Of a stretch of DNA of 64,000 nucleotides, positions 1,461 to 22,377 are shown piece by piece. Position numbers and translations under genes: made by a program. The notes beneath the pieces are model-generated. The model was not told the DNA's origin and did no database searches. It saw only the letters and a list, made by a program, of their open reading frames with translations. The first letter of the stretch is position 1. The number at the start of each line of letters is the position of its first letter. The stretch is from an uncultured bacterium (GTDB taxonomy: Bacteria > Verrucomicrobiota > Kiritimatiellia > RFP12 > UBA1067): NCBI GenBank assembly GCA_902761035.1, contig CACWIW010000015.1, forward strand, positions 1,586-65,585. The letters run 5' to 3'.

Positions 1461-1604
1461 CACCCCGCACCTTAAAAGGTCATGCATGTGAATAGTATAA
1501 GTCTAGTATGGGCAGAAATGCGCAGAAACACGGTAGAACGCCGTGTAAGGTGTTCGTTTAATCCTATTCCACACCCTATTCCTAACCGCACAGAGAAGCG
1601 CCCC

Positions 1605-4442: not shown

Positions 4443-4446
4443 CACG

Positions 4447-7965: not shown

Positions 7966-7995
7966 TTGACTTATGCCAAAAAATTATGGTATAAT
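7966..7995 (+). promoter_or_regulatory. Near-consensus sigma70-like promoter (extended -10) of the glycan export/assembly operon
   Basis: TTGACT (7966-7971), an 18-nt spacer, then TGgTATAAT (7987-7995). ATG 8003 lies 7 nt after the -10 element and there is no Shine-Dalgarno sequence between them. Confidence 0.55.
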
Positions 7996-8002
7996 TACAG
8001 CG

Positions 8003-8770
8003 ATGTTCAAGAAATTGAAGAGGCAGCGATTCCTGTTCGAGGAACTAGTAAAACGCGATTTCAAGAAAAAGTACAAACGTACTATCCTTGGGATGGGGTG
8101 GAGCATGCTTTCACCCCTTTTAATGCTTCTCGTGATGAAGATCGTGTTTGAGCAGTTTTTCGGGCGCACGATGAATCACTACACCACTTACCTGTTTTGC
8201 GGGCTTCTCACGTTCAACTGGTTTTCTGAATCAACTAATGGCGGAATGAGGTGCCTGTTCGGCAATGCGAGCATTTTCACGAAGGTGAATGTGCCTAAAT
8301 ATATGTTCCTTTTTTCGATAAACGTCCAGGTCCTGTTGAACTTCGCGTTGACGCTTCTGGTTTTCTTCGTGTTCTGCGCGATAGACCACGTGCAGTTCAC
8401 ATGGCGGTTCATTTGCCTTGCCTATCCCATCATGACCATGTTGCTGTTCAATTTGGGCATTGGCATGGTTCTTTCCGCGCTTTTCATCTTTTTCCGTGAC
8501 ATCGACTATCTATGGTCGGTCGCGCTTCAGCTTCTCATGTACGGTTCGGCCATCTTCTATACCGTGGGCAATTTCCCGCCGAATGTCCATTTGGTCTTTT
8601 CCTTGAACCCCGTCTATCGACACATAGCATATATCCGCGAGATTGTCCTGAAGGGGACCGTCCCCTCGCTTGAAACGCACTTGACGCTTTTGGGGTTCGC
8701 CGTCGCCGCTTTTCTTGCCGGCGCGTTTATGTACAAACACTACAACACGAAGTTCCTTTACTATGTCTAA
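8003..8770 (+). CDS. wzm: ABC-2 type polysaccharide/teichoic-acid exporter permease (Wzm/TagG-like)
   Basis: A multi-TM protein with the N-terminal motif ELVKRDFKKKYKRTILGMGWSMLSPLL, typical of ABC-2 permeases. The ORF opens at ATG 7973, but that codon lies inside the promoter spacer, so ATG 8003 is preferred. The stop overlaps the next gene's start (ATGTCTAA). Confidence 0.85.
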   Translation: MFKKLKRQRFLFEELVKRDFKKKYKRTILGMGWSMLSPLLMLLVMKIVFEQFFGRTMNHYTTYLFCGLLTFNWFSESTNGGMRCLFGNASIFTKVNVPKYMFLFSINVQVLLNFALTLLVFFVFCAIDHVQFTWRFICLAYPIMTMLLFNLGIGMVLSALFIFFRDIDYLWSVALQLLMYGSAIFYTVGNFPPNVHLVFSLNPVYRHIAYIREIVLKGTVPSLETHLTLLGFAVAAFLAGAFMYKHYNTKFLYYV

Positions 8771-10217
8771 TGCGAAGGTCATGCTCTCCTGCCAGAAAGT
8801 CTCCATCCTCTACCAGGTTGGGGACTTCAAGAACATTGGCCTGAAGGAGTGGGTGATGCGCCGTCTTACCGGCCGGTACGAGGTCATTAACTTCTGGGCA
8901 GACAAGGACGTGACCTTCTCGCTTAACAAGGGGGACATGTTGGGGATAATCGGCCTCAACGGGGCTGGAAAGTCAACGTTGCTCAAAGCGGTTTCGGGCA
9001 TAATGGAGCCTACGTCGGGCACGATTTCGCGCAGGGGAAACGTGGTGGCGCTTTTGGAGCTTGCGAGTGGATTTGACGGTGATCTCAATGTGAAGGAAAA
9101 TGCGTATCTGCGCGGGGCCATGCTCGGCTACACGCGCGCGTTCATGGACAAGACGTATCCCGACATAATCGAATTCGCGGAGCTGAAGGAGTTTGAGGAT
9201 CGTCCGTTCAAGCAGCTTTCGTCTGGCATGAAGTCGCGCCTGGCTTTTGCAATCGCCTCGCTTGTCAAGCCCGAGATACTGATTCTGGACGAGGTGCTTG
9301 CCGTGGGCGACGGGGCATTCCGCAAGAAGAGCGAGGCAAAGATGCGCGAGATCATCAAAGGAGGCGCGACCACGATCCTTGTTTCGCATTCCACATCGCA
9401 AGTGCGTTCGCTTTGCAATAAGGTTCTGTGGTTGGACAAGGGGCGTCAAGTCGTTTGCACGGACGATGTGGGAGGTGCTTGCGACTGTTATGACAAGTTT
9501 CTGCGCGGTGCTTCGCCTGCAGTCTATATCCCTCACGCACCGAAGGCTCGTATCGATATGCATGTGGCGGAGAACATAACTCCCCCTGTTGCCAAGTCGC
9601 AGGTGGCGACCACGCAGAGCCGTCCGAATGTCGCTGTTGGGACGGGCAAGGGGCCGGGGCAGAAAGCCAGCGTGCCCAGAACGCCGATCATGCCATTCCG
9701 CCGTGATGTCAATTTTGCGAAGCGAGTGACAGAGAGGAAGGGGACCGGAGAGATTAAGTATACGGCAGCAGATTTCTACGATCAGTTCGGGAGGCCGATT
9801 CGCGTGGCCAAGTGCGGGCAGCTTGTTCGCTTCGTCGTTTCGTTTTCAGTGGTAAAAGGAGTTCCTGCTGGAACCGTTGTTGGATTTGATTGCTGCGACC
9901 AATCTGGCAAGCAGTTGATCAGCCTGAATCTGCACACTTTTAGTTGTTCTCTGCCTGCTCTCAAAGCGGGTGCCAACCGGACGGTGGAATTCTCTATTCA
10001 CATCCCGCTTAACACGGGTAAGTATTCTTGGTCTGTGAACTTACGGCCCAATCCGGACAAACCCAATTTTTATGATTACTGCCATAATGCGGCGATATTG
10101 ACAGTTGTGAAAGGCAGCACGCGCTACTCCCAGTACCAGGGGGGGGCTTTTCTCGCATGTCCAGCCAGCATATCTTTTGTCGGAGAAGGACGCTCCAGCG
10201 TCTTGTTCAGGAAATGA
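8763..10217 (+). CDS. wzt: Polysaccharide ABC exporter ATP-binding protein with extra C-terminal domain (Wzt/TagH-like)
   Basis: The ORF opens at 8715; ATG 8763 is preferred because it is coupled to the permease stop. Motifs: Walker A GLNGAGKST, signature LSSGMKSRL, Walker B ILILDEVLAVGD, H-loop VSHS. A low-complexity linker and a beta-rich ~170-aa C-terminal domain (~9700-10214) follow. Confidence 0.9.
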   Translation: MSNAKVMLSCQKVSILYQVGDFKNIGLKEWVMRRLTGRYEVINFWADKDVTFSLNKGDMLGIIGLNGAGKSTLLKAVSGIMEPTSGTISRRGNVVALLELASGFDGDLNVKENAYLRGAMLGYTRAFMDKTYPDIIEFAELKEFEDRPFKQLSSGMKSRLAFAIASLVKPEILILDEVLAVGDGAFRKKSEAKMREIIKGGATTILVSHSTSQVRSLCNKVLWLDKGRQVVCTDDVGGACDCYDKFLRGASPAVYIPHAPKARIDMHVAENITPPVAKSQVATTQSRPNVAVGTGKGPGQKASVPRTPIMPFRRDVNFAKRVTERKGTGEIKYTAADFYDQFGRPIRVAKCGQLVRFVVSFSVVKGVPAGTVVGFDCCDQSGKQLISLNLHTFSCSLPALKAGANRTVEFSIHIPLNTGKYSWSVNLRPNPDKPNFYDYCHNAAILTVVKGSTRYSQYQGGAFLACPASISFVGEGRSSVLFRK

Positions 10218-10284
10218 ATAGTTGCATCTACAATCCATCGGCAGCCTTAGAAATGAGGCTTCGCAAAGAATAAGGAGGAGATTT

Positions 10285-13200
10285 ATGTGTAAGGTGTCCA
10301 TCGTAGTTCCTGTCTATAATCGCGAGAGCGTGCTTCGGACGTGTCTTGAGTCGCTTGTCGGCCAGACTCTGAAGGAGATTGAGATTATATGCATTGACGA
10401 CGGATCGTCGGATGGATCGGGGGTCGTCCTTGACGAATTTGCCGCACGCGATTCGCGCATCCGTGTGATCAAAAAGGAGAACGGGGGCGCAGCCTCTGCG
10501 AAAAACGCGGGACTTGCCGCCGTGAGCGGCAAGTATGTGGTGTTTGTTGAACCAGATGACTGGTGCGACTTAGACATGATGAGGGGATTGTATGAGACTG
10601 CGGAGCGGACTGGGGCGGACGTGACCATCTGCGGGTTCAAGACATACGACGACCAGATCGGAAAGTTTGTTTCGGAGAAAACGTATCCGCACGACATTGC
10701 TGGACGGGAGCAGCCCTTTTCTGCAAAGAGCATTGCCGATAACGCATTCATCTGGTTTGGACAGGGGCTTGGGGACAAGTTTATCAACAGTGCCTATCTT
10801 TCGCAGTTGGGGGTGAAGTTCCTTGATCTCCCTCATGCGGAGGATTTGTGTGTTGTCGAAACGTGCATCGCCTGTGCGGACAAAATCTCCGTGGCGAATT
10901 TCCCGTACTACAACTACAGAATTCGGAGCAAAAGCTCGCAAAATCAGAATGACAAGTCACCGCTTGCGTTTTGCGAGGGATATGTGGAGCTTCGTCACCA
11001 GCTTGAGAAGCGCGGCTTATGGGATTTGTTTAGGTCAAGTTTCCGCCAGTCCGTCCTTGCTTCTATCGTATATGCTCTGAAGTCTCTTTCGGATGATAAA
11101 GCCCTTCGGCGCGTCTATCGCGAAGTTCGCGAGAAGTGGGTGTCTAGATTCGGGCTAAACCACCTGGAAAAATCAGAGTTGAAGGTTCCGGAGCATCTGT
11201 ATGATTCGCTTAATATCATCCGCGAAAACTCCGATCCTGTCAGGTTCATGTTGCACGCGCTACGTGTCGATGCCGAGTCGGCCAATAAGGTCGGTGCTGA
11301 ACTGCGGTCTGCGAAAGCCCAGGCTTTTGACATTGGAGACAGCGCTCCCCTCGTTTCTGTAATCATTGCCGTCAGGAACGGACAGGATACAATCGAGAAT
11401 TGCGTGCGGTCGGTTCTTGGACAGACGCTTCGCCAGATCGAAGTGATCTGCGTTGACGACGGGTCGACGGACGGGACTGTTTCGGCACTTAATTCACTAG
11501 CCATTGGCGATGTGCGCTTGCGAGTGATTCGGCAGGGGAAGCTTGGTGTCAGCGCTGCCCGGAATGCGGGGCTTGAGGCCGCTTGCGGAAAATATGTCGC
11601 CTTTCTGGATGCCGATGACGAGTACGTTGCGACCCATCTTTGGAATCTCGTTGCAAAGGCGGAAGCCGGGATGTGTGATGTCGTTCAGGCCGCACACTGC
11701 GAGGTCGTCGACGGGCAGGTGTCTCGCACTTCCCTGCCGCACGAGAAATGCACGGCGACCGACCTCCGGTCATGTCCGCAAATTGTTCGTTTTCAGACGA
11801 AGTACATCTGGGACAAGCTTTTCCGCCGTGAAATGCTAGAGCGAAACAACATCCGCTTTGCACCATACGGATATCACGAAGACCACCTGTTCCTTTTCGA
11901 CGTTGATCTTGTCGCCAGGAATTTTGCAACAGTGCCCGAGGTGGGATATCGTTATTCGAAGTCCAGCGTGGGTGCGGCAACGCGCTCTTACGATGAGCGG
12001 CTTCTTGACTGCCCCAAAGCGTATTGGGACATCTGCCGCAAGGCGCGTGAAGCCGGGCTGTTCGATGAACTTGCCGATTCTATTTGGGCCAACTGCTCCA
12101 TGAGTTATGCATGGCGGATATGGGCGTTCCCAAAATACGACAACCCCGATCTCAAGAGCAAAATCGTCAACGGGTGGTATGAGTTCTTCCAGGCGACTTT
12201 CCCGCACTGGCAGAAGGACATGCATCTCCTCGGCTACCCGGTCGCCCTTCCCCCGCATGATTACCGAAAGGTTTTGTTGCTTGGCGGCACGGGCGCACTT
12301 GGTGCGCACCTTGCGGAAATCCTCGCGGAGCAGGGTTGCCAAGTCTACGTGACGAGCCGCAGCGAGCATGACGATGTGCCGGGCATCTGCTATCTGAAGG
12401 GTGATGCACAGGACATAGGCTTCTTCCGTAAATTGACGCAGTCTAGATGGGATGCAATCGTTGATTTCATGGTTTATGGGCCAATCGCGTTCCAGCAACG
12501 CCTGACCAAGTTCCTGGAGATGACGGACCAGTACGTTTTTCTCAGTTCCTCCCGCGTATATGCCGACGCCCATGGTCAGTTGATAACGGAAAACTCGCCG
12601 CGGCTTCTGGACACGGTGACTGACGACGCCTATCTCAAGACGAGCGAATATGCGTTGGCGAAGGCGCGTGCAGAGAATGCGCTGAGGGCCAGCGGAAGTA
12701 CGAATTGGACAATTATACGCCCTTATGTGACGTTTAGCGAGCAGCGCCTTCAGTTGGGTACGCTCGAGAAGGAACACTGGCTAAAGAGAGTCCTTGAAGG
12801 CAAGCCCATCGTCTTTTCGGACGATGTAGCCGCCAGGACTACGACTTTGACGTATGGCCGCGATGTCGCGCGAGGGATGGCGTCGCTTATTGGACGAAAA
12901 GAAGCGCTTGGCGAGTGTTTCCATATCACGTCCTCCAAAAGTCTGGTCTGGAGGGACGTGCTTGAAATTTACGTCAGGGTCATCCGCGAGGTTACGGGGC
13001 GGGCCTGCCCTGTGGTAATGACGAGAAATTCCTGTCAGCTAAATACGCCGGGCAAATACCAAGTCTTGTATGACCGTCTCTTTGACCGCAGGTTTGACAA
13101 TACGAAGATCGGGAGGTTCATCGACGTATCCACGTTCCGTGATCCCGTCGAGGCATTGGAGAGCTGCCTGAGGGCGTTTTTGGCCGCTCCCAAGTTCCTC

Positions 13201-16200
13201 AAGGTCAATGAATTACTTGAATCTCTGCATGACAAGGCCTGTGGCGCACTGCCTACGGTTTCTGGAGGCTATACCGTTGAACGTAACGTGCAGATTCTCA
13301 TTGCGGCCTTGAAAGCACACGGCATAAGGCAGGTGATTGCATCTCCAGGCACTACGAACCTGACGTTTGTTGCCAGCATACAGCACGATTCATTTTTCAC
13401 CGTCAAGTCAGCTCCAGACGAACGTTCCGCGGCGTACATGGCCTGTGGCTGGGCTGCGGAGTCGGGGGCTCCGGTGGTCATCAGCTGCACTGGAGCCACT
13501 GCGAGCCGCAACTACCTGCCAGGCCTCACTGAGGCGTATTACCGCAAATTGCCGATCCTGGCCGTTACGGGGACGTTATACGAGCCAAGGGGCGGACATC
13601 TCACTCCGCAGTTTATTGTACGCACGCAGGCACCTACGGACACAGTCCGCCTTCAGGTGTCGATGCCGTTCGTGCGCGACAAGAACGACGAATGGGCAAA
13701 TACGGTTGCCGCCAATCATGCGATACTTGAGTTGGTACGGCATGGTGGCGGCCCTGTACACATCAATCTCGAAACGATGCACAGCCGTGACTATTCCGTG
13801 GCACGGCTTCCACCGGTTCGCGTAATTCACCGTCACTTCCCCGGTGAAGGGATGCCGCCGATTCCAGACGGTCGTGTTGCCGTGTTCATCGGCGCCCATG
13901 TGCCTTGGTCTGAGGCGCTGACCCTGGAGGTGGAGAAGTTCTCCGAGAAGTTCGACGCGCCGGTGTTTTGCGACCACGGCTCGAACTATCGCGGGAAAGG
14001 CGAGATGAACTTCACGCTTGCCTGCTACCAGCAGAGCGCGACATACAAGGAATACCTGCCTGACGTTCTCATCCACATCGGCGAAGTCTCGGCAGACTAT
14101 CCTTCGTTGAAAATCGTAGGAATGTCGAAAGTCTGGCGAGTGAGTGCCGATGGCGAGATCCGCGACCAGTTCCGCAGGCTTGTTGATGTGTTCGAGATGG
14201 ACGAACTGTCTTTTTTCCGGTTTTACAATAATGATTCGGAGAGTTCCCGCGCTTCTGGATATCGTACGGCTTGTGAACGAAAGCTCGCAAGCCTTCGCTC
14301 TCGGTTCCCGGATGTCCCGTTCTCGAACATCTGGGTAGCAAGTGTGTCGTCTCCCAAGGTTCCGGAAGGGGCATTCCTCCACCTAGGCATACTTAATTCA
14401 TTCAGGGCATGGAGCCTGTTCCAGTTGCCGAAGACGGTTCTAGCATCCTGCAATGCGGGCGGCTTCGGAATAGACGGTTGCCTTTCGACTTTGCTTGGCG
14501 CTTCATTCGCCCATCCCGACCGGATTCATTTTGCGGTGCTTGGAGACCTCGCTTTCTTCTACGATCTTAACTCGCTGGGGAATCGTCATGTAGGGGCCAA
14601 TCTGCGTATTCTGCTTATCAACAACGGCAAGGGAATGGAATTCCGTAATTTTAACCATCCTGCCTATCAATTCGGAAAGGCGGCCGACGAGTTTGTGGCA
14701 GCTGGCGGACACTACGGGAACAAGTCCCGTGAACTCGTGCGCCACTATGCGCAAGACTTGGGTTTTGACTATCTTTCCGCAGCTGACAAGCATGAATACA
14801 TGAAGGTGGCGGAGTCGTTCTGGTCGCCAGTGAAGCGGTCGAAGCCGCTCATACTCGAGGTTTTTACCGATGAGGAGTGCGAAAACGGGGCGCTTGAAAC
14901 TGTCACGTTGATGGAGGGAGCACCACCGCCCCCCAAACCCGTGGCGGCGCCTCCGCCCGCCAAACCCGCGTCGGCGCCTCCGCCCCCCAAAAAACCTGCG
15001 TCGGCGCCTCCGCCCACCAAGCCCGCGCCCCCAGCCCCTAAGGCCGCCCCCGCAAAGGCCCCCGCCGCGAAGGCGGTGCAGCCTATTAAGGTGGAGAGGG
15101 CAACTGTGGCGTCTCGGAAAATCGCCATCTTGACCTTCCACTGTGCCTACAATTGCGGTGCGTATCTGCAGGGATGGGCTCTTCAGACAATTCTTCGGCG
15201 CATTGGCTTCGAACCAGAGTTTCCGGATTGCACGCGCGTTGGTTATTTCCCGCGTTTCGGGGATGTCTGGTACAAGCAAAAGCCTAGCCCGGAGGCGGGC
15301 TGGTTCTCGCGTATGCTCTTCCGTCTTAAGACGGAGATTTGTGCCCTTGGACATGAGGATGTGAAACGGCATCGCTTTCGCATGTTTGCAAAGCATTGCC
15401 TCGCCATAAAGGTAATGAAACCTAAAGAAATCGAACGTCGATATCCGGCTGTAATAGTCGGCAGCGATCAAGTCTGGAACCCCGCCATAACGAGAAAAGA
15501 GACGGAATATTTCCGTACGACGATTTTCAAGAACCCGGCGCTGAAACGGTATTCCTACGCGATTAGCGTTGGCGATGCAATGCCAAAGAAGGAGAGCATC
15601 TCCTATTTGACGGCTGCGGCGAAGCTATTTGAGAACCTTTCGTTTAGAGAGAATCTATTGCCTCAGCTAGTGGATAAACATGGTCGTCATCCGACCGTTG
15701 ACCTAGATCCGACGTTGTTGCTGTCGAAGGCAGACTTCAACCGTATTGCCTATCCCAAGCGTTTGGAACGGAAGCCGTATCTTCTTGTCTATTCGCTCAT
15801 GTACAACGAGAAGACGTGGAACGCTGCGCGGACAGTGGCTAAACGGCTGGGGCTCAAGCCAGTGTTCATTCTGGTCTATCAGTACGGTCACAGTCAGATG
15901 GTCGATCCCGATGGTGTGCAAATCTCTGTTTCGCCTGATCGTTTTCTTGCTTACATTCGTGACGCCGAGGTGGTGATTACATCGTCTTTCCATGGCACGG
16001 CATTTTCCCTCATCTATCAGAAGAAGTTCGCTACCCTGCCATTTGTTCATGGGAAGGTGTCGCTTCGCTGTCAGAAGCTTCTCAAGTCGGTACACGAGGA
16101 GATTCACCAGATCGACAACCCTGATGATATTGAGGCGATTACCGCCGCGCTTACTTACACTCCGAGGCCTGAGACCATGCAGGCGCTTTCCAGGCTTTCG

Positions 16201-16410
16201 AACATGACGATTCGCAAACTGCGCGCGACGCTGCCTAATGTCGATGGTGTGCCGCGTTCACCAGCGCGTCCTGTCTATAGTACGCTCACTTGGCCGTTCC
16301 ATAAGATGTGGGGCGGGATAAAGTGTATCAAAGAGAACGGCGTTGGCTACACAGTCAAGCATGCCTGGGGTAAGGTCCTCCGGTTTGCAGGCGTCAGAAG
16401 CCCGCTTTAA
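10285..16410 (+). CDS. Five-domain glycan assembly enzyme (2,041 aa): GT2 - GT2 - extended SDR - MenD-like ThDP enzyme - Pro-rich linker - polysaccharide pyruvyl transferase
   Basis: ATG 10285 follows AAGGAGGAG (10272-10280). GT2 #1: VSIVVPVYN..QTLKEIEIICIDDGSSDGS. GT2 #2 from ~11350: VSVIIAVRN..QTLRQIEVICVDDGSTDGT. SDR from ~12262: LLLGGTGALGAHL and YALAK. ThDP domain at ~13270-14900: DERSAAYMACG and GDLAFFYDLNSLG..LLINNGKG. Pyruvyltransferase at ~15115-16130: AILTFHCAYNCGAYLQ and ITSSFHGTAFS. Confidence 0.9.
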   Translation: MCKVSIVVPVYNRESVLRTCLESLVGQTLKEIEIICIDDGSSDGSGVVLDEFAARDSRIRVIKKENGGAASAKNAGLAAVSGKYVVFVEPDDWCDLDMMRGLYETAERTGADVTICGFKTYDDQIGKFVSEKTYPHDIAGREQPFSAKSIADNAFIWFGQGLGDKFINSAYLSQLGVKFLDLPHAEDLCVVETCIACADKISVANFPYYNYRIRSKSSQNQNDKSPLAFCEGYVELRHQLEKRGLWDLFRSSFRQSVLASIVYALKSLSDDKALRRVYREVREKWVSRFGLNHLEKSELKVPEHLYDSLNIIRENSDPVRFMLHALRVDAESANKVGAELRSAKAQAFDIGDSAPLVSVIIAVRNGQDTIENCVRSVLGQTLRQIEVICVDDGSTDGTVSALNSLAIGDVRLRVIRQGKLGVSAARNAGLEAACGKYVAFLDADDEYVATHLWNLVAKAEAGMCDVVQAAHCEVVDGQVSRTSLPHEKCTATDLRSCPQIVRFQTKYIWDKLFRREMLERNNIRFAPYGYHEDHLFLFDVDLVARNFATVPEVGYRYSKSSVGAATRSYDERLLDCPKAYWDICRKAREAGLFDELADSIWANCSMSYAWRIWAFPKYDNPDLKSKIVNGWYEFFQATFPHWQKDMHLLGYPVALPPHDYRKVLLLGGTGALGAHLAEILAEQGCQVYVTSRSEHDDVPGICYLKGDAQDIGFFRKLTQSRWDAIVDFMVYGPIAFQQRLTKFLEMTDQYVFLSSSRVYADAHGQLITENSPRLLDTVTDDAYLKTSEYALAKARAENALRASGSTNWTIIRPYVTFSEQRLQLGTLEKEHWLKRVLEGKPIVFSDDVAARTTTLTYGRDVARGMASLIGRKEALGECFHITSSKSLVWRDVLEIYVRVIREVTGRACPVVMTRNSCQLNTPGKYQVLYDRLFDRRFDNTKIGRFIDVSTFRDPVEALESCLRAFLAAPKFLKVNELLESLHDKACGALPTVSGGYTVERNVQILIAALKAHGIRQVIASPGTTNLTFVASIQHDSFFTVKSAPDERSAAYMACGWAAESGAPVVISCTGATASRNYLPGLTEAYYRKLPILAVTGTLYEPRGGHLTPQFIVRTQAPTDTVRLQVSMPFVRDKNDEWANTVAANHAILELVRHGGGPVHINLETMHSRDYSVARLPPVRVIHRHFPGEGMPPIPDGRVAVFIGAHVPWSEALTLEVEKFSEKFDAPVFCDHGSNYRGKGEMNFTLACYQQSATYKEYLPDVLIHIGEVSADYPSLKIVGMSKVWRVSADGEIRDQFRRLVDVFEMDELSFFRFYNNDSESSRASGYRTACERKLASLRSRFPDVPFSNIWVASVSSPKVPEGAFLHLGILNSFRAWSLFQLPKTVLASCNAGGFGIDGCLSTLLGASFAHPDRIHFAVLGDLAFFYDLNSLGNRHVGANLRILLINNGKGMEFRNFNHPAYQFGKAADEFVAAGGHYGNKSRELVRHYAQDLGFDYLSAADKHEYMKVAESFWSPVKRSKPLILEVFTDEECENGALETVTLMEGAPPPPKPVAAPPPAKPASAPPPPKKPASAPPPTKPAPPAPKAAPAKAPAAKAVQPIKVERATVASRKIAILTFHCAYNCGAYLQGWALQTILRRIGFEPEFPDCTRVGYFPRFGDVWYKQKPSPEAGWFSRMLFRLKTEICALGHEDVKRHRFRMFAKHCLAIKVMKPKEIERRYPAVIVGSDQVWNPAITRKETEYFRTTIFKNPALKRYSYAISVGDAMPKKESISYLTAAAKLFENLSFRENLLPQLVDKHGRHPTVDLDPTLLLSKADFNRIAYPKRLERKPYLLVYSLMYNEKTWNAARTVAKRLGLKPVFILVYQYGHSQMVDPDGVQISVSPDRFLAYIRDAEVVITSSFHGTAFSLIYQKKFATLPFVHGKVSLRCQKLLKSVHEEIHQIDNPDDIEAITAALTYTPRPETMQALSRLSNMTIRKLRATLPNVDGVPRSPARPVYSTLTWPFHKMWGGIKCIKENGVGYTVKHAWGKVLRFAGVRSPL
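14920..15075 (+). repeat. Pro/Ala/Lys-rich interdomain linker encoded by three imperfect 27-30-nt tandem units
   Basis: The protein reads APPPPKPVAAPPPAKPASAPPPPKKPASAPPPTKPAPPAPKAAPAKAPAAKA. The unit GCGCCTCCGCCC..AA.CC.GCG recurs three times. The linker contains a C6A6 tract at 14983-14994. Confidence 0.8.
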
Positions 16411-16420
16411 TCAGCGGCCC

Positions 16421-17725
16421 ATGAAATTGTCGGTCATAATTCCGGCCTTTAATGCCGCCCAGTGGATAAAGGACGCCGTTGATTCGGTGTTGGTGCAGGA
16501 TTTTAGGGATTTTGAGCTTATTGTCGTTGATGACGGGTCTACGGATGAAACTTTAGCCATAATTGATCGGATTGCCGCATCGGATGGCAGGGTGTCCGTC
16601 ATCCATCAACGGAATGCGGGGCCCGGCGTTGCACGGAACGCAGGGCTCGACCATGCCAGTGGTGAATATGTGGCATTCGTTGATTCGGACGATAAGTTGG
16701 CATCGCCAAACGCGCTGTCGTCAATGATGCAAAGGGCTGTCGAGACCGGATGTGATGTGCTGCTGGCGCGCGCGCGCAAGATCGGTCTTCGAGGTGAGCT
16801 TGGAAATGAACTTGACTGGTGCCTGAGGAAAAACCTTATTCCAGCGCGGGATGTGTTCTCACCCGAAGAAGTCGGGGTCTCGTTGTTTTTTGTCGCCGGC
16901 CCGGTGCCTTGGGGAAAGCTCTATCGCCGCGAGTTCGTTAACGGCGAAAAGCTGCGATTCCCGCCATTGCCAAGATCCGAAGATTTCCCATTTGTTCAGA
17001 CGGCGATGGCATGTGCGGGGAAGATTGCGGTTTATGATGACATTGTGATTTTGCATAGAGTGGCGCGTGTCGATTCCCTTGAAAGCACGAAGGATGCGAC
17101 CCCCTTGATTTTTGCGGAAGCCGAAAGCATCTTTGCAAAAATGCTTGGCGAACGGGGGCTTTGGGAAAAATTCGCTTTGGCTGCAAAGGCGCGTGCCATG
17201 CTGAGGTTGGCTTATAACCTGACGGCGGTTCAATCCTTCGACGGTATCCGGAAGGTGTTCGCATTCGCGTATGAGGAACGAAAGAATTTGTGCATTGATG
17301 ATGTTGCCGACTCCTTCCGTGACTATGCTTTGGCGAAGAGGAATGTAGACGGTATTCTCGCACATGAATCTGCGGAAGCGTGGATGTACGCAAGAATGGT
17401 GGCTGCGGAAAAGAACTTACGGGCGAAGGTTGTGGAACTACGGAGGTACGACAGGGATCATAAGGCGCTGGCGGCGTTGAAGGCTGCTCAGGACGCATCA
17501 CTGGTTCAATCGCAGCGGGAGGTGTCGCGGCTCAAGCAAAAGGTCATGTCGCTGGAAGAGAAGTCGTTGGCGCTTGAATGTTCCGAGGCGTACCGCGTCG
17601 GAATGGCCGTCACATGGCCGGCGCGGAGGGCGTGGGGCGGCGTGAAGTGCCTGCGCGAGAACGGCTTGAAGTACACCATAGAACACGCCATTGGAAAGGT
17701 GTTTAGCAGACGCGGCAGGCAATGA
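16421..17725 (+). CDS. GT2 glycosyltransferase with C-terminal coiled coil and conserved tail
   Basis: ATG 16421 lies 10 nt after the upstream stop (the ORF opens at 16343). The GT2 head reads MKLSVIIPAFN...DFELIVVDDGSTDET. A C-terminal heptad-rich segment (~17390-17570) is followed by SEAYRVGMAVTWPARRAWGGVKCLRENGLKYTIEHAIGKV. Confidence 0.9.
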   Translation: MKLSVIIPAFNAAQWIKDAVDSVLVQDFRDFELIVVDDGSTDETLAIIDRIAASDGRVSVIHQRNAGPGVARNAGLDHASGEYVAFVDSDDKLASPNALSSMMQRAVETGCDVLLARARKIGLRGELGNELDWCLRKNLIPARDVFSPEEVGVSLFFVAGPVPWGKLYRREFVNGEKLRFPPLPRSEDFPFVQTAMACAGKIAVYDDIVILHRVARVDSLESTKDATPLIFAEAESIFAKMLGERGLWEKFALAAKARAMLRLAYNLTAVQSFDGIRKVFAFAYEERKNLCIDDVADSFRDYALAKRNVDGILAHESAEAWMYARMVAAEKNLRAKVVELRRYDRDHKALAALKAAQDASLVQSQREVSRLKQKVMSLEEKSLALECSEAYRVGMAVTWPARRAWGGVKCLRENGLKYTIEHAIGKVFSRRGRQ

Positions 17726-17766
17726 GTTGCCCGTGTAAAACCCATAAAAAGGACAGGAGAGACGCT

Positions 17767-20700
17767 ATGCCCAAAATATCATTTGTCGTTCCCGTATGCA
17801 ACACCGCGCAGTTTCTGTCCGCGACGCTCGACAGCATCCTCGCGCAGACGTACAGAAACATCGAAGTCATCTGTTCCAACGACTGTTCGACAGACTCGTC
17901 ATCGCAGATGCTCGACGAGTATGCAAAGAAAGACTCCCGCGTCAAAGTAGTGACGGCCGAGAAAAACGGCGGGGTTTCGTGCGCGCGAAATCAGGGGTTG
18001 GAACATGTGACCGGCGAATACGTTTGGTTCTTTGATTCGGACAACCTCCTTCATCCCCAGGCGGCGGAGATCATGCTCCGCGCCTGTGAGGGCAACAAAG
18101 CCGATTTCGCCTATACGCCGGTCGAGCGCGTCCAAGAGGAGGCTGCGCTTGCCGATTGCGTCAAGCCTGTTGCCTGCACGGTGGAATGCATGGCCAGCCC
18201 GACCGATCCCTACAGATTGTACGGCAACGACTATGGGATGCAGCACATATTGGCGAAGGCGGAGCTTGTAAGGGATAACAGATTCGAGCGGGGGGTGACT
18301 TATGGCGAGGATGTCCTTTTTGTGTATCGATTCCTCATCAAGAACCCCAAAGGCGTGTATATCCACGAACCGCTTGTTTACTACCGCCAGAGGGAGTCTT
18401 TGGCCGTTCAAGGCCAGGGAGGTGTGCGCATACAAAGAAGTGTAGACCGCGTGGTAGAATGCCTCAAACCGCTTCTGATGCTTGACATGCCATCCGAGAC
18501 AAGGACGGTTTTGACACGATGGCTTAAAGCCAATAACGCTGGTAGCCTGCCGCAGCTGGAAAGCGAAAGCTCTTGCTACGCCGTCATGGCATCTGACGAT
18601 ATCCGGGCGAAATCGACATCCGGCGGCGTGTTCACCGTCTTGGCGGAGGATGTCATCGCGCACGGCGGTTGCGTGGCCGGCGCGGTCTATGCGAACGACT
18701 GGTCGGTTAAACACGAATTGGTCGAAACCGTTGAGGGCATAGCGGCCATGCGTGGCTCCAAATATGTTCGCGGCGTCATAGACAAGAACTTTCTTGCCCG
18801 TCTTGACGAGGCGGTCGCATTGGGGAGAACCGTGCTTTTCACCGGACTGCCGTGCCAGGTCGCCGCGATGCGTAAGCGTTACGGCAATCGACAGAACGTC
18901 ATTTTTCTGGATATCATCTGCCACGGCGCGCCGGATGCCAGGTTGTGGCGGAAGCGTGTGGAGGAGCTTTCGTCGGGAAGTAGGAGAATAACCGGCATCA
19001 ACTTCAGGGACAAGCGCAACGGATGGGGTGGATTGACGAGTACGTTCGCCGTGAACTATGACGACGGCTCCGAGTATGCAGTAGATCTTTACAAAGACCC
19101 TTACGGTGTGGCGTTCGGAATCGATCTGCTTCTTCCCGAAGAATGCACCCGCTGTCCGTTCTCTTGCGAAAAACGCGTAGGTGACATTACGATTGGCGAC
19201 TTCTGGGACTTGGCAAATAGTTCACTTAATGATCGCAAGGGCCTTTCATGCGTGGTCGTGAACACGCTAAGAGGCTTGGAATTGTTTGAGCGCGTCCGCA
19301 ATCGCTTTTGTCAAGCCCTGCCGTACCCTGTATCTTATGTTAAACAACCGAATTTCCACATGCCATCGCGACCGCATCCGTTCAGCAGGGAATTCCAGAA
19401 AGATGTCCTTGCTGGGATGCCGTTTGACGCGGCGGTAGCGAAGTACGCAGAGCACCCAAAAAGCGTCGCCGTGCTGAATTTCCATTGGGAACAGACGAAT
19501 TTCGGGGCGATACTCACGTCTTTTGCACTTTCACGGCATCTCACGGATATCGGGTGGCAGCCACAGAACATCGATTACTCCCCGCTGGATTCCGACCTCG
19601 CCGCCATGCGCGAAAATGTTGGTTTCGAGTCGTTCAGATACCGTCATCTGCCGCGGACGCGGAAAATTACGGACGGCAGATCGTTGTGGAATTATACGAA
19701 GAGGTTTAAGACGTTTATCGTCGGCAGCGATCAGGTCTGGTCTAAGAAATTGACCGAAGGCAAGGAAGATGCCTTCTACCTCTCTTTCGTCGGGCCTGGT
19801 AGGAGGCTGATTGCGGCTGCGGCGAGTTTTGGGATGGTACCGGCTGCCGAACGGGACGAGGAAGCTCTGACGGCGCGGCTCAGGGTCTTCAGTGCCATCA
19901 GCGTGCGGGAAATGCAAGACGCACAAACAGTCAGGAATCTTGTGGGTAAAGGCGAGTGCGTCCCGGATCCAGTATTTTGGGTCGATCGGTCGGTCTGGGA
20001 CGAGCTTGCCGACAAGGCGAAGCGCAAAACCGTTGGAAAGGTCGTCGTCTATAGCGTAAACATGTCGGAGACTGCGGGGATTCTGAAGTTTCTTGAGATG
20101 AGCGGCCTTACGACCCCGAAAAAGCCTGCAAGGATGCTTTCCAGTTCCATGAGCCCCGAGGAATGGCTCTCGGCCATCCGTGCAGCGAAGCTTGTTGTGA
20201 CCGATTCATTTCATGGCGCATGTTTCTCGGTTTTGTTCCACACGCCTTTCATCTGCATCCAAGCGGATGAAAACCGCTCTGCACGGCACCGCACGATGTT
20301 GGAGGGACTTGGCCTTTCGGGGCATCTTTTCAAAGATGGCGAGAGTGCCTTTCAGGCTTACAGCGTCGGGATGAACGTCGACTGGGCCAAGGTGGACGAT
20401 GGGATTGCGCAGTATCGCAGCAAGGGGCGGGATTTCATAGAGTCCGCCCTCGCGACAGATGACATGGCGTCCCCGGAAATGGCGGCAGCTTGGACGCAGC
20501 TTGAAGATTACCGCAAGGAGCACCCCTGTTTGTGGACTAGAGGCCAATCTGCAATGCGGTCTGCCATGATGGCAGACGCTAAGATTTGGGCGCAGCGATG
20601 TCGGTTCAAGGAGGAGCGCGACGCACTGCGCGTGCGGGTCGAGGAACAGAAGGCTAAAGAGGCTGCGCTGTGGGCGGAACGCAGCAAGTTCTTGGAGGAG

Positions 20701-22377
20701 CGCGACGCGCTGCGCGGGCGGGTCGAGGAACAGAAGGCGAAGGAGACCGCGCTGTGGGCGGAGCGCTGCAAGTTCTTGGAGGAACGCGACGCGCTGCGCG
20801 GGCGGGTCGAGGAACAGAAGGCAAAGGAGACCGCGCTGTGGGCGGAACGCAGCAAGTTCTTGGAGGAGCGCGACGCATTGCGCGAGCGGGTAGAGGAACA
20901 GAAGGCGAAGGAGACCGCTCTGTGGGCGGAACGCTGCAAGTTCTTGGAGGAGCGCGACGCATTGCGCGAGCGGGTAGAGGAACAGAAGGCGAAAGAGACC
21001 GCGCTGTGGGCTGAGCGCTGCAAGTTCTTGGAAGAGCGCGACGCACTGCGCGGGCGGGTCGAGGAGCAGAAGGCGAAAGAGACCGCGCTGTGGGCGGAGC
21101 GCTGCAAGTTCTTGGAAGAGCGCGACGCGCTGCGCGGGCGGGTCGAGGAACAGAAGGCGAAGGAGACCGTGCTGTGGGCGGAACGCTGCAAGTTCTTGGA
21201 GGAACGCGACGCACTGCGCGGACGGATCGAGGAGCAGAAGGCGAAAGAGGCTGCGCTGTGGGCGGAGCGCAGCAAGTTCTTGGAGGAGCGTGACGCGCTG
21301 CGCGGGCGGGTCGAGGAACAGAAGGCAAAGGAGACCGCTCTGTGGGCGGAACGCTGCAAGTTCTTGAAGGAACGCGACGCACTTCGCGGGCGGGTCGAGG
21401 AACAGAAGGCGAAGGAGACCGCTCTGTGGGCGGAACGCTGCAAGTTCTTGGAGGAACGCGACGCACTTCGTGGGCGGGCCGAGGAGCAGAAGGCGAAGGA
21501 GGCTGCACTGTGGGCGGAACGGTGCAAGTTCTTGGAGGAGCGTGACGCATTGCGCGGGCGGGTCGAGGAACAGAAGGCAAAGGAGACTTCGCTGTGGGCG
21601 GAACGCTGCAAGTTCTTGGAGGAGCGTGACGCATTGCGCGGGCGGGTTGAGGAGCAGAAGGCGAAGGAGGCCGCACTGTGGGCGGAACGGTGCAAGTTCT
21701 TGGAGGAGCGTGACGCATTGCGCGGTCGGGTCGAGGAGCAGAAGGCGAAGGAGGCCTCGCTGTGGGCGGAACGCTGCAAGTTCATGGAGGAACGTGACGC
21801 ATTGCGTGGACGGGTCGAGGAACAGAAGGCGAAGGAGACCGCGCTATGGGCGGAACGGTGCAAGTTCTTGGAGGAGCGTGACGCGCTGAGCGGTAGGGTC
21901 GAGGAGCAGAGGGCGAAGGAGGCCGCGCTGTGGGCTGAGCGCGGAAAAATCATGGCCCAGCGCGATGCGCTGCGCGAACGGAATGAGGCGCAGAAGGCGA
22001 AAGAGGCAAAACTGTGGGCTGAACGCGGCAAATTCAAGGACGAGCGCGATGCGCTACTCGAACGGATTGAGGTACAGAAGGTTAAGGAGTCCAAGCTCTG
22101 GGCTGATCGCTGCAAGTTCCTGGGTGAGCGCAACGAACTTCGAATGGTGGTTGCCGAGAAGGATGCGTCACTGGCTGCGGATGCCGGCTGGATAGCGGAA
22201 CTTTGCGACGCGCTTATGGTCGCCGAAAAAGAGGTGTCGGCCCTCCGGGAGTCCGCTTCCTATAAGTTGGGGCGTGCGCTCACCAAGCCGTTCCGTGCCA
22301 TCCGTGATAGGTTCAACCAAAAAACGGCAATTAGAAATGATATAAGCCACAAAGAACAGGATAAAACAGGAGAATGA
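17767..22377 (+). CDS. Multidomain enzyme: GT2 - FrhB-like (coenzyme F420 hydrogenase beta-type Fe-S/flavin) - polysaccharide pyruvyl transferase - 19 x 28-aa helical repeat stalk - conserved tail
   Basis: ATG 17767 (MPKISFVVPVCN) follows AGGAGA; ATG 17722, which overlaps the upstream stop, is an alternative start. GT2: QTYRNIEVICSNDCSTDSS. FrhB-like at ~18570-19330: STSGGVFTVLAE, LPCQVAAMRK, CTRCPFSC. Pyruvyltransferase at ~19460-20320: VAVLNFHWEQTNFGAIL and VTDSFHGACFS. Repeats occupy 20578-22173. The tail reads SASYKLGRALTKPFRAIRDRF. Confidence 0.9.
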   Translation: MPKISFVVPVCNTAQFLSATLDSILAQTYRNIEVICSNDCSTDSSSQMLDEYAKKDSRVKVVTAEKNGGVSCARNQGLEHVTGEYVWFFDSDNLLHPQAAEIMLRACEGNKADFAYTPVERVQEEAALADCVKPVACTVECMASPTDPYRLYGNDYGMQHILAKAELVRDNRFERGVTYGEDVLFVYRFLIKNPKGVYIHEPLVYYRQRESLAVQGQGGVRIQRSVDRVVECLKPLLMLDMPSETRTVLTRWLKANNAGSLPQLESESSCYAVMASDDIRAKSTSGGVFTVLAEDVIAHGGCVAGAVYANDWSVKHELVETVEGIAAMRGSKYVRGVIDKNFLARLDEAVALGRTVLFTGLPCQVAAMRKRYGNRQNVIFLDIICHGAPDARLWRKRVEELSSGSRRITGINFRDKRNGWGGLTSTFAVNYDDGSEYAVDLYKDPYGVAFGIDLLLPEECTRCPFSCEKRVGDITIGDFWDLANSSLNDRKGLSCVVVNTLRGLELFERVRNRFCQALPYPVSYVKQPNFHMPSRPHPFSREFQKDVLAGMPFDAAVAKYAEHPKSVAVLNFHWEQTNFGAILTSFALSRHLTDIGWQPQNIDYSPLDSDLAAMRENVGFESFRYRHLPRTRKITDGRSLWNYTKRFKTFIVGSDQVWSKKLTEGKEDAFYLSFVGPGRRLIAAAASFGMVPAAERDEEALTARLRVFSAISVREMQDAQTVRNLVGKGECVPDPVFWVDRSVWDELADKAKRKTVGKVVVYSVNMSETAGILKFLEMSGLTTPKKPARMLSSSMSPEEWLSAIRAAKLVVTDSFHGACFSVLFHTPFICIQADENRSARHRTMLEGLGLSGHLFKDGESAFQAYSVGMNVDWAKVDDGIAQYRSKGRDFIESALATDDMASPEMAAAWTQLEDYRKEHPCLWTRGQSAMRSAMMADAKIWAQRCRFKEERDALRVRVEEQKAKEAALWAERSKFLEERDALRGRVEEQKAKETALWAERCKFLEERDALRGRVEEQKAKETALWAERSKFLEERDALRERVEEQKAKETALWAERCKFLEERDALRERVEEQKAKETALWAERCKFLEERDALRGRVEEQKAKETALWAERCKFLEERDALRGRVEEQKAKETVLWAERCKFLEERDALRGRIEEQKAKEAALWAERSKFLEERDALRGRVEEQKAKETALWAERCKFLKERDALRGRVEEQKAKETALWAERCKFLEERDALRGRAEEQKAKEAALWAERCKFLEERDALRGRVEEQKAKETSLWAERCKFLEERDALRGRVEEQKAKEAALWAERCKFLEERDALRGRVEEQKAKEASLWAERCKFMEERDALRGRVEEQKAKETALWAERCKFLEERDALSGRVEEQRAKEAALWAERGKIMAQRDALRERNEAQKAKEAKLWAERGKFKDERDALLERIEVQKVKESKLWADRCKFLGERNELRMVVAEKDASLAADAGWIAELCDALMVAEKEVSALRESASYKLGRALTKPFRAIRDRFNQKTAIRNDISHKEQDKTGE
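20578..22173 (+). repeat. In-frame tandem repeat, 19 x 84 bp (28 aa), inside the CDS at 17767-22377
   Basis: The unit is x-x-LWAER(C/S)KFLEERDALRGRVEEQKAKE. Unit k starts at 20578+84(k-1) and there are no indels across all 19 copies. Copy 1 and copies 17-19 are degenerate; the central copies differ at only a few positions. Confidence 0.95.

Follow-up and report, generated by a model that had tools for sequence, protein, structure and literature searches.

Architecture of the multidomain protein and its locus

The window analyzed here, a stretch of 64,000 nucleotides from an uncultured member of the Kiritimatiellia, contains a multidomain open reading frame (ORF) on the + strand at 10285–16410. 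This ORF encodes 2041 aa from an ATG at 10285, or 2062 aa from a TTG at 10222, and a protein of identical sequence and 2041 aa (P0272) is present in the protein collection. The ORF list, the translation, and Pfam matches give the domain order GT2-GT2-SDR-ThDP-linker-pyruvyltransferase, all on the + strand. The first GT2 glycosyltransferase domain (10285–11331; residues 22–370) matches PF00535 in two stretches, the best at residues 26–154. The second (11332–12246; residues 371–675) matches PF00535, PF10111, and PF13641 from residue 378 and NF007482 at residues 374–605. These are followed by an extended-SDR domain (12247–13251; residues 676–1010) with a PF01370 match at residues 684–894, and by a MenD-derived ThDP domain that consists of PYR, middle, and PP parts (13252–14925; residues ~1011–1568). 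A flexible linker rich in Pro, Ala, and Lys is recognizable in the translation at 14923–15072 and connects the ThDP domain to a polysaccharide pyruvyl transferase (PvT) domain (15112–16407; residues 1631–2062). The PF04230 match of the latter (residues 1644–1937; E 1.4e-21) passes the Pfam gathering threshold (78.1 vs. 25.3 bits). In this genome, the two GT2 domains and the reductase/ThDP/pyruvyltransferase trio are fused into one assembly-line polypeptide.

Upstream on the + strand (7973–10217), a Wzm-like ABC-2 permease (PF01061) and a Wzt-like ATPase with a Wzt_C domain (PF00005 and PF14524) are encoded, and the locus is therefore assigned to an ABC-transporter-dependent glycan pathway. A neighboring ORF (17722–22377, + strand) has the Pfam-based composition GT2-FrhB-like-pyruvyltransferase-repeat stalk and carries a PEP-transferase module, the second one in this locus.

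The SDR domain lies directly N-terminal to the ThDP domain and is recognized by the Pfam Epimerase model with an E value of 6.7e-11. It contains the motifs GGTGALG (residues 688–694; 12283–12303) and YALAK (residues 810–814; 12649–12663). Both motifs, as well as the Ser in an S-S-S-R segment, are invariant among 28 SDRs of the gene cassette described below. The AlphaFold2 (AF2) model of this domain (pLDDT 91) has an extended-SDR fold, and the fold search returned generic matches to NDP-sugar epimerases, dehydratases, and reductases (TM 0.65–0.73), which are compatible with either oxidation or reduction. The domain is likely the ketoreductase of the cassette.

Relationship of the ThDP domain to MenD

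The preliminary description had recognized a MenD-like ThDP domain at 13270–14900, inside a glycan enzyme and directly after an SDR. This span falls within the full ThDP domain, and the pyrimidine-block and GD...NN motifs on which the description relied are present in the + strand translation of the ORF at 10222/10285–16410: ASPGTTNLTFVAS (residues 1040–1052; window 13339–13377), DERSAAY...ILAVTG (residues 1066–1117; 13417–13572), and GDLAFFYDLN...NNGKG (residues 1441–1471; 14542–14634). The setting is also as described, with GT2 and PF04230 domains in the same ORF and a link to SDRs and pyruvyltransferases that recurs across loci.

Several lines of evidence agree that the domain is closer to MenD than to the acetolactate synthase (ALS) type, as had been proposed, and the resemblance goes well past what chance would produce. 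In NCBIfam, the isolated domain matches the menD model TIGR00173 almost end to end (E 1.9e-42, 146 bits, model positions 3–433 of 435; 140 bits with the whole protein), whereas no ALS model scores above about 44 bits, with alignments confined to the first ~100 residues. A search of PDB sequences gave MenD chains at E 1e-23 to 1e-13, and ALS at E 1e-10 with the N-terminal part only. A match to PF02776 was also obtained in Pfam. The AF2 model of the domain (pLDDT 85.5, pTM 0.87) predicts the three-domain fold of the ThDP superfamily, with an N-terminal pyrimidine-binding and a C-terminal diphosphate-binding domain. Foldseek searches with this model gave 417 PDB matches at E ≤ 0.001; MenD structures lead the list and account for all of the 50 best matches (E 1e-24 to 4e-21). 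The TM-scores of the monomer model against MenD are modest (0.4–0.53), so that the ranking is informative and the superposition is not; these values may arise because the single-chain model positions the three domains differently relative to one another.

Despite this relationship, the domain is not MenD itself. Its score of 146 bits lies under the curated cut-off of the TIGR00173 equivalog model (244.2 bits), and the genuine MenDs P0234 and P0251, in which all MenD residues are present, score 283 and 269 bits. In the phylogenetic tree, a branch with 100% support splits the glycan-associated ThDP clade from MenD. Of the ThDP families named for comparison in the preliminary description (MenD, ALS, YerE, and Ppd), MenD is the closest by HMM, sequence, and fold. 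For the Ppd type (phosphonopyruvate/sulfopyruvate decarboxylase), no NCBIfam or PDB match was obtained and no PEP mutase occurs in the listed neighborhoods, and this candidate was rejected.

The residues of the cofactor site are retained. Glu1067 (13420–13422, + strand), which corresponds to the cofactor-activating Glu55 of Escherichia coli MenD (EcMenD), occupies an invariant column in both alignments; mutation of Glu55 abolishes EcMenD activity (PMC2914249). The diphosphate/metal motif GDL-x24-NN (14542–14634, + strand) is invariant in the alignment and includes Asp1442 and Asn1468, the equivalents of EcMenD Asp442 and Asn469. Ile1417 corresponds to MenD Ile418, which holds ThDP in the V conformation, and is invariant in the clade. 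More broadly, the equivalents of Glu55, Gln118, Arg395, Ile418, Asp442, Asn469, and Phe475 are conserved in the window's domain and in about 100 cluster representatives, and 60 columns are invariant in an alignment of 16 diverse members. A degenerate domain, which missing catalytic residues would have indicated, is therefore not what was found: the activating Glu, the GD...NN motif, and the V-conformation Ile are all invariant in the clade. With cofactor and catalytic residues intact, the domain looks like a complete and active carboligase/decarboxylase.

The substrate site, on the other hand, has lost most of its MenD features. In MenD, Arg33, Arg107, and Lys292 bind isochorismate, and Arg413 (Arg428 in Bacillus subtilis) binds the side chain of 2-oxoglutarate, with Arg395 also contributing to 2-oxoglutarate binding (PMC2914249, PMC6618250). 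The window's domain has Thr1045 for Arg33, Leu1119 for Arg107, and Ala1412 (14455–14457, + strand) for Arg413. Of the four arginines, Arg395 alone is kept (Arg1395); its B. subtilis equivalent Arg409 helps to bind both substrates (PMC2914249). Across the glycan clade, Arg33 is replaced by Thr, Arg107 by Leu or variable residues, and Ser391 by Leu; at the position of Lys292 the alignment is inconsistent, and Lys is never present. Position 413 is Ala, Val, Thr, or Ile in the clade and Arg in proteins above the menD cut-off. A further clade-specific residue, Glu1473 (14638–14640, + strand), replaces MenD Ile474 beside the conserved Phe1474; position 474 is Glu in nearly all glycan-clade representatives, whereas genuine MenDs have Ile, Leu, Met, or Thr there. 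The loss of Arg413 and Ser391 is the single basis for predicting a donor that lacks a distal carboxylate, most likely pyruvate. Thousands of clade proteins are named "SEPHCHC synthase" or "thiamine pyrophosphate-binding protein" in databases, and the former label appears to be wrong because the MenD substrate residues are lost and the genes lie in glycan loci. As far as sequence can tell, the ThDP domain evolved from MenD and no longer makes SEPHCHC.

A reductase–ThDP–pyruvyltransferase cassette across genomes

Stand-alone homologs of the ThDP domain (~580 aa, 50–59% identical) occur in many phyla, and all surveyed homologs are located in polysaccharide loci. The survey comprised 89 loci, and the 64 with at least 1.3 kb of flank on both sides were used for neighbor counts. 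A reductase lies within two genes of the ThDP gene in 60 of these 64 loci (28 extended SDR, 33 classical SDR), a pyruvyltransferase within three genes in 53, and both together in 50. In the remaining 11 loci, no pyruvyltransferase is present within three genes; in L031, L059, and L086, none is present within 8 kb. The order SDR-ThDP-PvT is found in 29 of the 64 loci and likewise in L001, L012, and L014. It occurs downstream of a Wzx gene in Runella zeae, on a Sulfurimonas contig, and on a metagenome contig. Plasmid pRUMAL01 of Ruminococcus albus 7 has the arrangement PvT-flippase-ThDP-SDR, with RUMAL_RS18370, RS18380, and RS18385 as the three cassette genes.

Natural fusions include ThDP-PvT, PvT-ThDP, SDR-ThDP, SDR-ThDP-PvT, GT2-ThDP-PvT, AKR/4Fe4S-ThDP, and ThDP-AKR/4Fe4S. 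The occurrence of ThDP/pyruvyltransferase fusions in both orders suggests that the two enzymes share a chemistry rather than that the pyruvyltransferase adds a later, separate decoration. The redox partner varies freely, with extended SDRs, classical FabG-like adh_short SDRs, and AKR-4Fe4S proteins replacing one another, and at least 10 switches of reductase type are forced on the ThDP tree, one of them within the sister pair L009/L010. Such repeated swaps would be expected of a generic ketoreductase that works on the product of the ThDP enzyme, and not of a specific sugar oxidase. Another extended SDR resembling NDP-sugar dehydratases or epimerases is present in just five of the 89 loci, a count limited by flanks of at most 8 kb.

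The window's protein fits the cassette signature, with Ala1412 (Val/Thr/Ala at position 413), Glu1473 (Glu at position 474), and flanking SDR and PvT domains. Based on these comparisons, the reductase, the MenD-derived ThDP enzyme, and the PF04230 pyruvyltransferase form a conserved, horizontally spread, and uncharacterized cassette with the ThDP enzyme at its center; a literature search found no paper on such a combination. The window's ThDP domain is thus very probably an active enzyme other than MenD that works with the reductase and the pyruvyltransferase in glycan decoration.

Proposed chemistry and comparison with known systems

For the reaction sequence, we tentatively favor a Stetter-type route, at somewhat below even confidence, in which all three steps are inferred. 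First, the PvT domain would use PEP to place an enolpyruvyl ether (2-alkoxyacrylate) on a hydroxyl of the sugar freshly added by the GT2 domains. Second, the ThDP domain would decarboxylate a small 2-oxoacid without a distal carboxylate, most likely pyruvate, and attach the resulting acyl-anion equivalent at the enolpyruvyl group's terminal CH2 in a Stetter-type 1,4-addition, giving a 2-O-glycosyl-4-oxopentanoate. Third, the SDR domain would reduce the 4-ketone. The expected end product would be 2,4-dihydroxypentanoic acid joined to the sugar by an ether at its 2-position, or a homolog if another 2-oxoacid served as donor. Several points count against this route. A 2-alkoxyacrylate is electron-rich and a weaker Michael acceptor than isochorismate, and known PF04230 enzymes release ketals rather than enolpyruvyl ethers. 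A pyruvyltransferase is missing within three genes in 11 of the 64 loci, and the SDR has a fold shared with NDP-sugar enzymes, so that it could conceivably oxidize its substrate or act on an NDP-sugar.

Alternatively, the ThDP domain may be a YerE/YerF analog on a MenD scaffold, although this is unlikely and the reading is weaker than the Stetter-type route. The acyl group of a 2-oxoacid would undergo 1,2-addition to the carbonyl of a keto-sugar to give an acyl-branched sugar; the SDR would either make the keto-sugar or, like YerF, reduce the newly formed acyl branch, and the PvT would then ketalize the product. The intact ThDP cofactor site and the match of the SDR fold to NDP-sugar enzymes agree with such a scheme, as does the pairing of a ThDP enzyme and an NAD(P)H reductase within glycan loci, which is the pattern of YerE/YerF and ErwE/ErwF (PMC9306805, PMC12247030). 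However, the domain is MenD-derived, YerE-like/ALS-type proteins match it weakly and in the N-terminus only, and YerE-like entries are absent from the PDB sequence matches listed and from the Foldseek top 50. About half of the loci, as well as sister lineages, have a FabG-like SDR or an AKR instead of an extended SDR, and the scheme leaves the ThDP-PvT fusions in both orders without a reason. For the same reasons, the sequence of events suggested in the preliminary description, namely keto-sugar formation by the SDR, YerE-like branching, and then pyruvylation, finds little agreement with the survey: the reductase was swapped at least 10 times, and a second NDP-sugar dehydratase-like gene for keto-sugar supply occurs in only five of 89 loci within the flanks covered. 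A later and separate pyruvylation is likewise disfavored by the two fusion orders.

It is improbable that the ThDP enzyme acts mainly on soluble metabolites, as a decarboxylase or acyloin-forming ligase, and yields with the reductase a small hydroxy compound such as an alcohol, diol, or hydroxy-acid. In this reading, which involves no Stetter step, the compound would either be joined to the glycan in some other way or serve as substrate of the PvT-family enzyme. The loss of the MenD acceptor-binding arginines could mean that the second substrate was lost altogether, and the gained Glu beside the conserved Phe recalls the catalytic Glu of pyruvate decarboxylases; the loci without a nearby pyruvyltransferase would also be accommodated. 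Nevertheless, no activating kinase, ligase, or nucleotidyltransferase travels with the cassette, and the ThDP-PvT fusion and the fusion of the trio to GT2 domains point to chemistry on a glycan intermediate. In addition, Arg395 is retained, and its equivalent in B. subtilis MenD (Arg409) takes part in binding both substrates (PMC2914249). Finally, it is extremely improbable that the domain is a genuine MenD that became fused to glycan enzymes by chance, or a ThDP fold that has degenerated into a purely structural spacer: although menD is the best HMM and many database records call stand-alone homologs SEPHCHC synthase, true MenD is contradicted by the HMM cut-off, the loss of three of the four substrate arginines, and the genomic context (no men genes near the window's domain, none of the 89 surveyed loci in a men context, and no match above the menD cut-off in the window's own genome), and a degenerate domain by the presence of all cofactor residues and by 50–59% identity across phyla.

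The end product predicted by the Stetter-type route has a counterpart in nature. Ethers in which 2,4-dihydroxypentanoic acid is linked through its 2-position to sugars are described for O-antigens of Providencia alcalifaciens, e.g., β-D-Manp4OR in O31 (PMC10609480, citing Shashkov et al. 2008). Formally, these ethers equal an enolpyruvyl group plus an acetyl anion plus a reduction, which is the structure predicted here; the likeness lies in the structure. A literature search found no paper describing how 2,4-dihydroxypentanoate ethers are made, no Providencia was among the matches listed in a homolog search seeded with the proteobacterial protein P0056, and a review of E. coli O-antigens mentions no ThDP gene. 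With still more caution than for the route itself, the cassette may represent a widespread and mobile "hydroxy-acid ether" module, in which ketoreduction follows a ThDP-dependent Stetter ligation, the first known to act on an enolpyruvyl group that derives from PEP and is bound to a glycan. If so, the orphan ethers of Providencia O-antigens would be explained, a biosynthetic route would be available for a known O-antigen component, and the same or homologous acidic decorations would be expected on gut, rumen, marine, and soil bacteria, with Bacteroides, Prevotella, Ruminococcus albus, Runella, Sulfurimonas, Saccharibacteria, and Kiritimatiellae as predicted carriers. Such an acidic, chiral surface decoration on gut and rumen commensals could influence how phages and the immune system recognize them. 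The reaction would also add a new C–C bond-forming step to the enzymology of polysaccharide tailoring and would bring the natural roles of MenD-type Stetter chemistry to just two. The five-domain fusion, together with the plasmid-borne cassette of the cultured R. albus 7, makes the question directly testable.

Among characterized systems, MenD (TIGR00173; PDB 2JLC, 3HWX, 2X7J, 5ESO, 7TIN, and 9E9B) provides the best HMM, sequence, and structure match and has the three-domain ThDP fold in common with the window's domain. MenD is a Stetter-type enzyme that performs a 1,4-addition to an α,β-unsaturated carboxylate (PMC2914249), and the reaction type proposed for the ThDP domain is the same. However, the window's domain lies in a polysaccharide locus beside a reductase and a pyruvyltransferase, with no men genes, and its donor and acceptor are probably not 2-oxoglutarate and isochorismate. 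YerE/YerF and ErwE/ErwF, which are encoded in surface-glycan loci, each combine a ThDP-dependent C–C ligase and an NAD(P)H reductase and use 2-oxoacid donors to make acyl-branched LPS sugars (PMC9306805, PMC12247030). The adjacent NAD(P)H reductase is common to both cases, and here the SDR is fused directly upstream of the ThDP domain. YerE-like enzymes nevertheless fall into another subclass within the decarboxylase superfamily. They depend on CDP-4-keto-3,6-dideoxyhexose, a sugar nucleotide for which the cassette does not include the pathway genes, and, unlike the ThDP enzyme of the cassette, they are not coupled to a PEP-dependent transferase.

A further parallel is found in the logic of MurA/MurB, where a PEP-derived three-carbon unit is set on a sugar hydroxyl and tailored by a second enzyme, as proposed here, although MurA and PF04230 are not known to be homologous. 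In the known PF04230 enzymes (CsaB, WcaK, and Pvg1p), the three-carbon unit is closed into a cyclic ketal, whereas in the cassette it would instead be extended by two carbons and then reduced.

The fused enzyme and its glycan locus

The MenD-like ThDP domain (window 13252-14925, + strand; residues ~1011-1568) is part of one large fused ORF. According to its translation, this ORF most likely starts from an ATG and spans 10285-16410 (+; 2041 aa), or 10222-16410 if a TTG is used, and P0272 of the protein collection searched is identical to the ATG-started product. Pfam assigned two GT2 domains, an Epimerase-family SDR (residues 684-894), TPP_enzyme_N (residues 1024-1118), and PS_pyruv_trans (PF04230 pyruvyltransferase, PvT; residues 1644-1937), and a Pro/Ala/Lys linker of ~50 residues (PPPPKPVAAPPPAKPASAPPPPKKPASAPPP...; window 14923-15072) separates the ThDP and pyruvyltransferase domains. 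Relatives of 1650-1670 aa have one GT2 domain fewer. Among full-length relatives, the closest named one is a Kiritimatiellae MAG protein (66% identity). Upstream are genes for a Wzm-like permease and a Wzt_C-containing Wzt-like ATPase, and downstream are about 12 more glycosyltransferase or sugar-modification genes; thus, this is an ABC-transporter-dependent surface-glycan locus.

In the next ORF (window 17722-22377), GT2 is fused to an FrhB/FdhB-like flavin/Fe-S domain and to another PF04230 domain. By analogy, it may provide a second way to process an enolpyruvyl ether, for example a MurB-like step that reduces it to a lactyl (1-carboxyethyl) ether. Two large surface-protein genes (window 1482-7866) precede the glycan locus. 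One product combines a C10 peptidase with an Inhibitor_I69 prodomain, Listeria-Bacteroides repeats, and BspA-type LRRs; the second, of 1139 aa, is a BspA-type LRR protein.

Relationship of the ThDP domain to MenD

The sequence strings quoted in the preliminary description are present in the fused ORF (residues 1040-1052, 1066-1117, and 1441-1471), and its view of the domain as MenD-like rather than of the acetolactate-synthase (ALS) type was borne out by HMM, PDB sequence, and fold searches. The isolated domain matched NCBIfam menD (TIGR00173) over nearly the whole model (E 1.9e-42), whereas NCBIfam acetolactate-synthase models matched only the first ~100 residues (≤44 bits). In the PDB sequence search, MenDs of S. 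aureus, Listeria, B. subtilis, E. coli, and M. tuberculosis led (E 1e-23 to 1e-13) and ALS ranked behind them (E 1e-10). An AlphaFold2 model of the domain (36 homologues; pLDDT 85.5, pTM 0.87) had only MenD structures among its top 50 Foldseek hits in the PDB. The TM-scores were only 0.4-0.53, presumably owing to how the three domains are arranged relative to one another in the monomer model.

A true MenD was rejected on the basis of score (146 bits against a curated cut-off of 244.2), replaced substrate residues, and placement in a separate clade. In an alignment with E. coli MenD (EcMenD; MG1655) and ~100 cluster representatives, all cofactor-related residues are conserved: EcMenD Glu55, Gln118, Arg395, Ile418, Asp442, Asn469, and Phe475 correspond to window Glu1067, Gln1130, Arg1395, Ile1417, Asp1442, Asn1468, and Phe1474, respectively. 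With none of these residues missing, the domain is not degenerate, and the idea of a dead structural domain is contradicted. Roles of the MenD substrate residues are assigned from mutagenesis and structures in PMC2914249 and PMC6618250. Among the residues that these papers link to isochorismate, Arg33 is Thr in the window and its clade, Arg107 (Arg in >94% of MenDs) is Leu in the window and variable in the clade, and Lys292 is never Lys in either, the alignment being uncertain there. Ser391 is Leu in the window and clade. Arg413 (B. subtilis Arg428), assigned to 2-oxoglutarate, is Ala, Val, or Thr, and Ile474 (B. subtilis Ile489), assigned to the non-polar side of the active site, is a Glu that is near-invariant in the clade. 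Two collection proteins that are 30-33% identical to the query (P0234 and P0251) score above the menD cut-off, at 283 and 269 bits, and retain every MenD residue. In the maximum-likelihood tree, a long branch with 100% support lies between the glycan clade and genuine MenDs. The window's genome (6.1 Mb, 315 contigs) has no menD match above the cut-off. It is well supported that the domain derives from MenD and works as an active C-C ligase that tailors glycans.

Distribution, gene neighborhoods, and natural fusions

This ThDP family is widespread and mis-annotated. The best 120 of at least 8000 candidates are stand-alone proteins of ~580 aa that are 53-59% identical to the domain, with sources including Runella, Paucibacter, Treponema zuelzerae, Alkalispirochaeta, Sulfurimonas, Sulfurovum, Proteiniphilum, Muribaculaceae, and Cloacimonadota; a second search added Dyadobacter, Emticicia, Hydrogenophaga, Mangrovibacterium, and Desulfosalsimonas. 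A metagenome scan confirmed at least 587 loci, in samples of gut, rumen, marine, compost, and fermenter origin. The gene was found in none of the 40 searched genomes related to that of the window, so its distribution follows glycan loci rather than phylogeny.

The window's own genome has a truncated second copy (G000:C6:69851-70414; locus L023 9798-10433, - strand), a 211-aa ORF limited to the N-terminal PYR domain that shares 54% identity with window-domain residues 7-194. Its neighbors (DUF4062/HATPase_c_4, AAA/nSTAND3, and S8 peptidase) are defence-like rather than those of a glycan locus, and this copy is probably a gene remnant. In a Bacteroides xylanisolvens MAG (L011 8001-9663), the homolog aligns in two pieces that overlap slightly (query residues 7-167 and 163-557), which suggests a frameshift, due either to a pseudogene or to an assembly error.

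In Runella zeae and on one Sulfurimonas and one metagenome contig, separate genes encode a Wzx flippase, an Epimerase-family SDR (~350 aa), the ThDP enzyme, and PS_pyruv_trans, in the same order as the window's fused domains. The 420-kb plasmid pRUMAL01 of Ruminococcus albus 7 (L105; NC_014824.1 350679-356209) carries genes for PvT, flippase, ThDP enzyme, and SDR, in that order. This strain is a cultured and sequenced rumen strain; its SDR is of the NAD-dependent epimerase/dehydratase family, and LicD and nucleotidyltransferase genes adjoin the cassette.

For the neighbor survey, ORFs were called in 89 loci and classified by iterated HMMs checked with Pfam, and counts were restricted to the 64 loci flanked by at least 1.3 kb on each side. 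A reductase gene lies within two genes in 60 of these loci (extended SDR like the window's in 28; classical adh_short SDR of ~280 aa in 33). A PF04230 gene lies within three genes in 53 (directly adjacent in 40), and 50 loci have both partners. In a subgroup, represented by L028 and L031, two tandem classical SDR genes precede the ThDP gene; no pyruvyltransferase was found within ~8 kb on either side in L031, nor in L028, where the downstream flank covers only ~2 kb. This subgroup may represent a variant pathway.

Natural fusions include ThDP-PvT (P0123 and P0186), PvT-ThDP (P0168 and P0195), SDR-ThDP (P0159), SDR-ThDP-PvT (P0281), GT2-ThDP-PvT (P0284 and P0285), GT2-SDR-ThDP-PvT (P0122 and P0273-P0280), and an aldo-keto reductase (AKR) with a 4Fe-4S (dicluster) domain on either side of ThDP (P0124, P0125, P0204, and P0282). 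Because both orders and varied partners occur, these fusions provide strong evidence that the reductase, ThDP, and PvT activities serve a single pathway.

The reductase and a candidate pathway

Three reductase types occupy one slot in the cassette, namely extended SDR, classical SDR, and AKR; the two SDR types are only distant relatives, and AKR is unrelated to both. The SDR partner type switches at least 10 times on the ThDP tree, even when only well-supported branches are counted. The Bacteroidales loci L009 (extended SDR) and L010 (classical adh_short SDR) have sister ThDP genes with end branches of 0.14 and 0.17, which shows recent non-homologous reductase replacement within the cassette. 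Such interchangeability is consistent with a reductase that generically reduces the ketone or aldehyde made by the ThDP enzyme, and agrees poorly with an enzyme dedicated to oxidizing a sugar to a keto-sugar. In the window SDR, the glycine motif and the Ser/Tyr/Lys set are intact. Its model (pLDDT 91) has a generic likeness to NDP-sugar epimerases, dehydratases, and reductases (15-20% identity), a fold that by itself would be compatible with either reaction direction.

The preliminary description is partly supported: an active carbon-ligating enzyme in glycan tailoring has good support, but its proposal that the SDR makes a keto-sugar that the ThDP domain then alkylates or acylates, in the manner of YerE-type enzymes, is the weaker reading. 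YerE/YerF and the cassette share the pairing of a ThDP enzyme with a reductase (PMC9306805; PMC12247030). However, in addition to the reductase swapping, the window enzyme falls into another subclass, 84 of the 89 loci (flanks up to 8 kb) lack a pathway to supply a keto-sugar, and the coupling to a pyruvyltransferase is left unexplained. A decarboxylase of soluble metabolites would not readily account for the fusion with GT2 and PvT domains or for the lack of an activating enzyme in the cassette.

For the MenD-derived ligase, we infer a scheme that would use all three cassette activities and no others. The PF04230 domain would move an enolpyruvyl unit from PEP onto a sugar hydroxyl, the MenD-derived domain would decarboxylate a 2-oxoacid and join the resulting acyl anion to the 2-alkoxyacrylate at its CH2 (Stetter 1,4-addition), and the reductase would turn the 4-ketone into an alcohol. 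With pyruvate as the donor, the product would be a 2,4-dihydroxypentanoic acid 2-ether of the sugar. PMC2914249 presents MenD as the classic enzyme for such addition to an alpha,beta-unsaturated carboxylate and describes B. subtilis Arg409, equivalent to Arg395, as helping to bind both substrates; retention of Arg395 in the window domain is counted in favor of the MenD-like scheme. The aliphatic residues that stand in for Arg413 and Ser391 fit a donor that lacks a distal carboxylate, most simply pyruvate.

A literature search found no paper on the biosynthesis of 2,4-dihydroxypentanoate ethers or on the reductase-ThDP-PvT cassette. As documented in PMC10609480, which cites Shashkov et al. 2008, O-antigens of Providencia alcalifaciens carry 2,4-dihydroxypentanoate 2-ethers in stereoisomeric forms, such as beta-D-Manp4OR in O31. 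The pyruvate-derived product predicted for the cassette would be exactly this type of ether.
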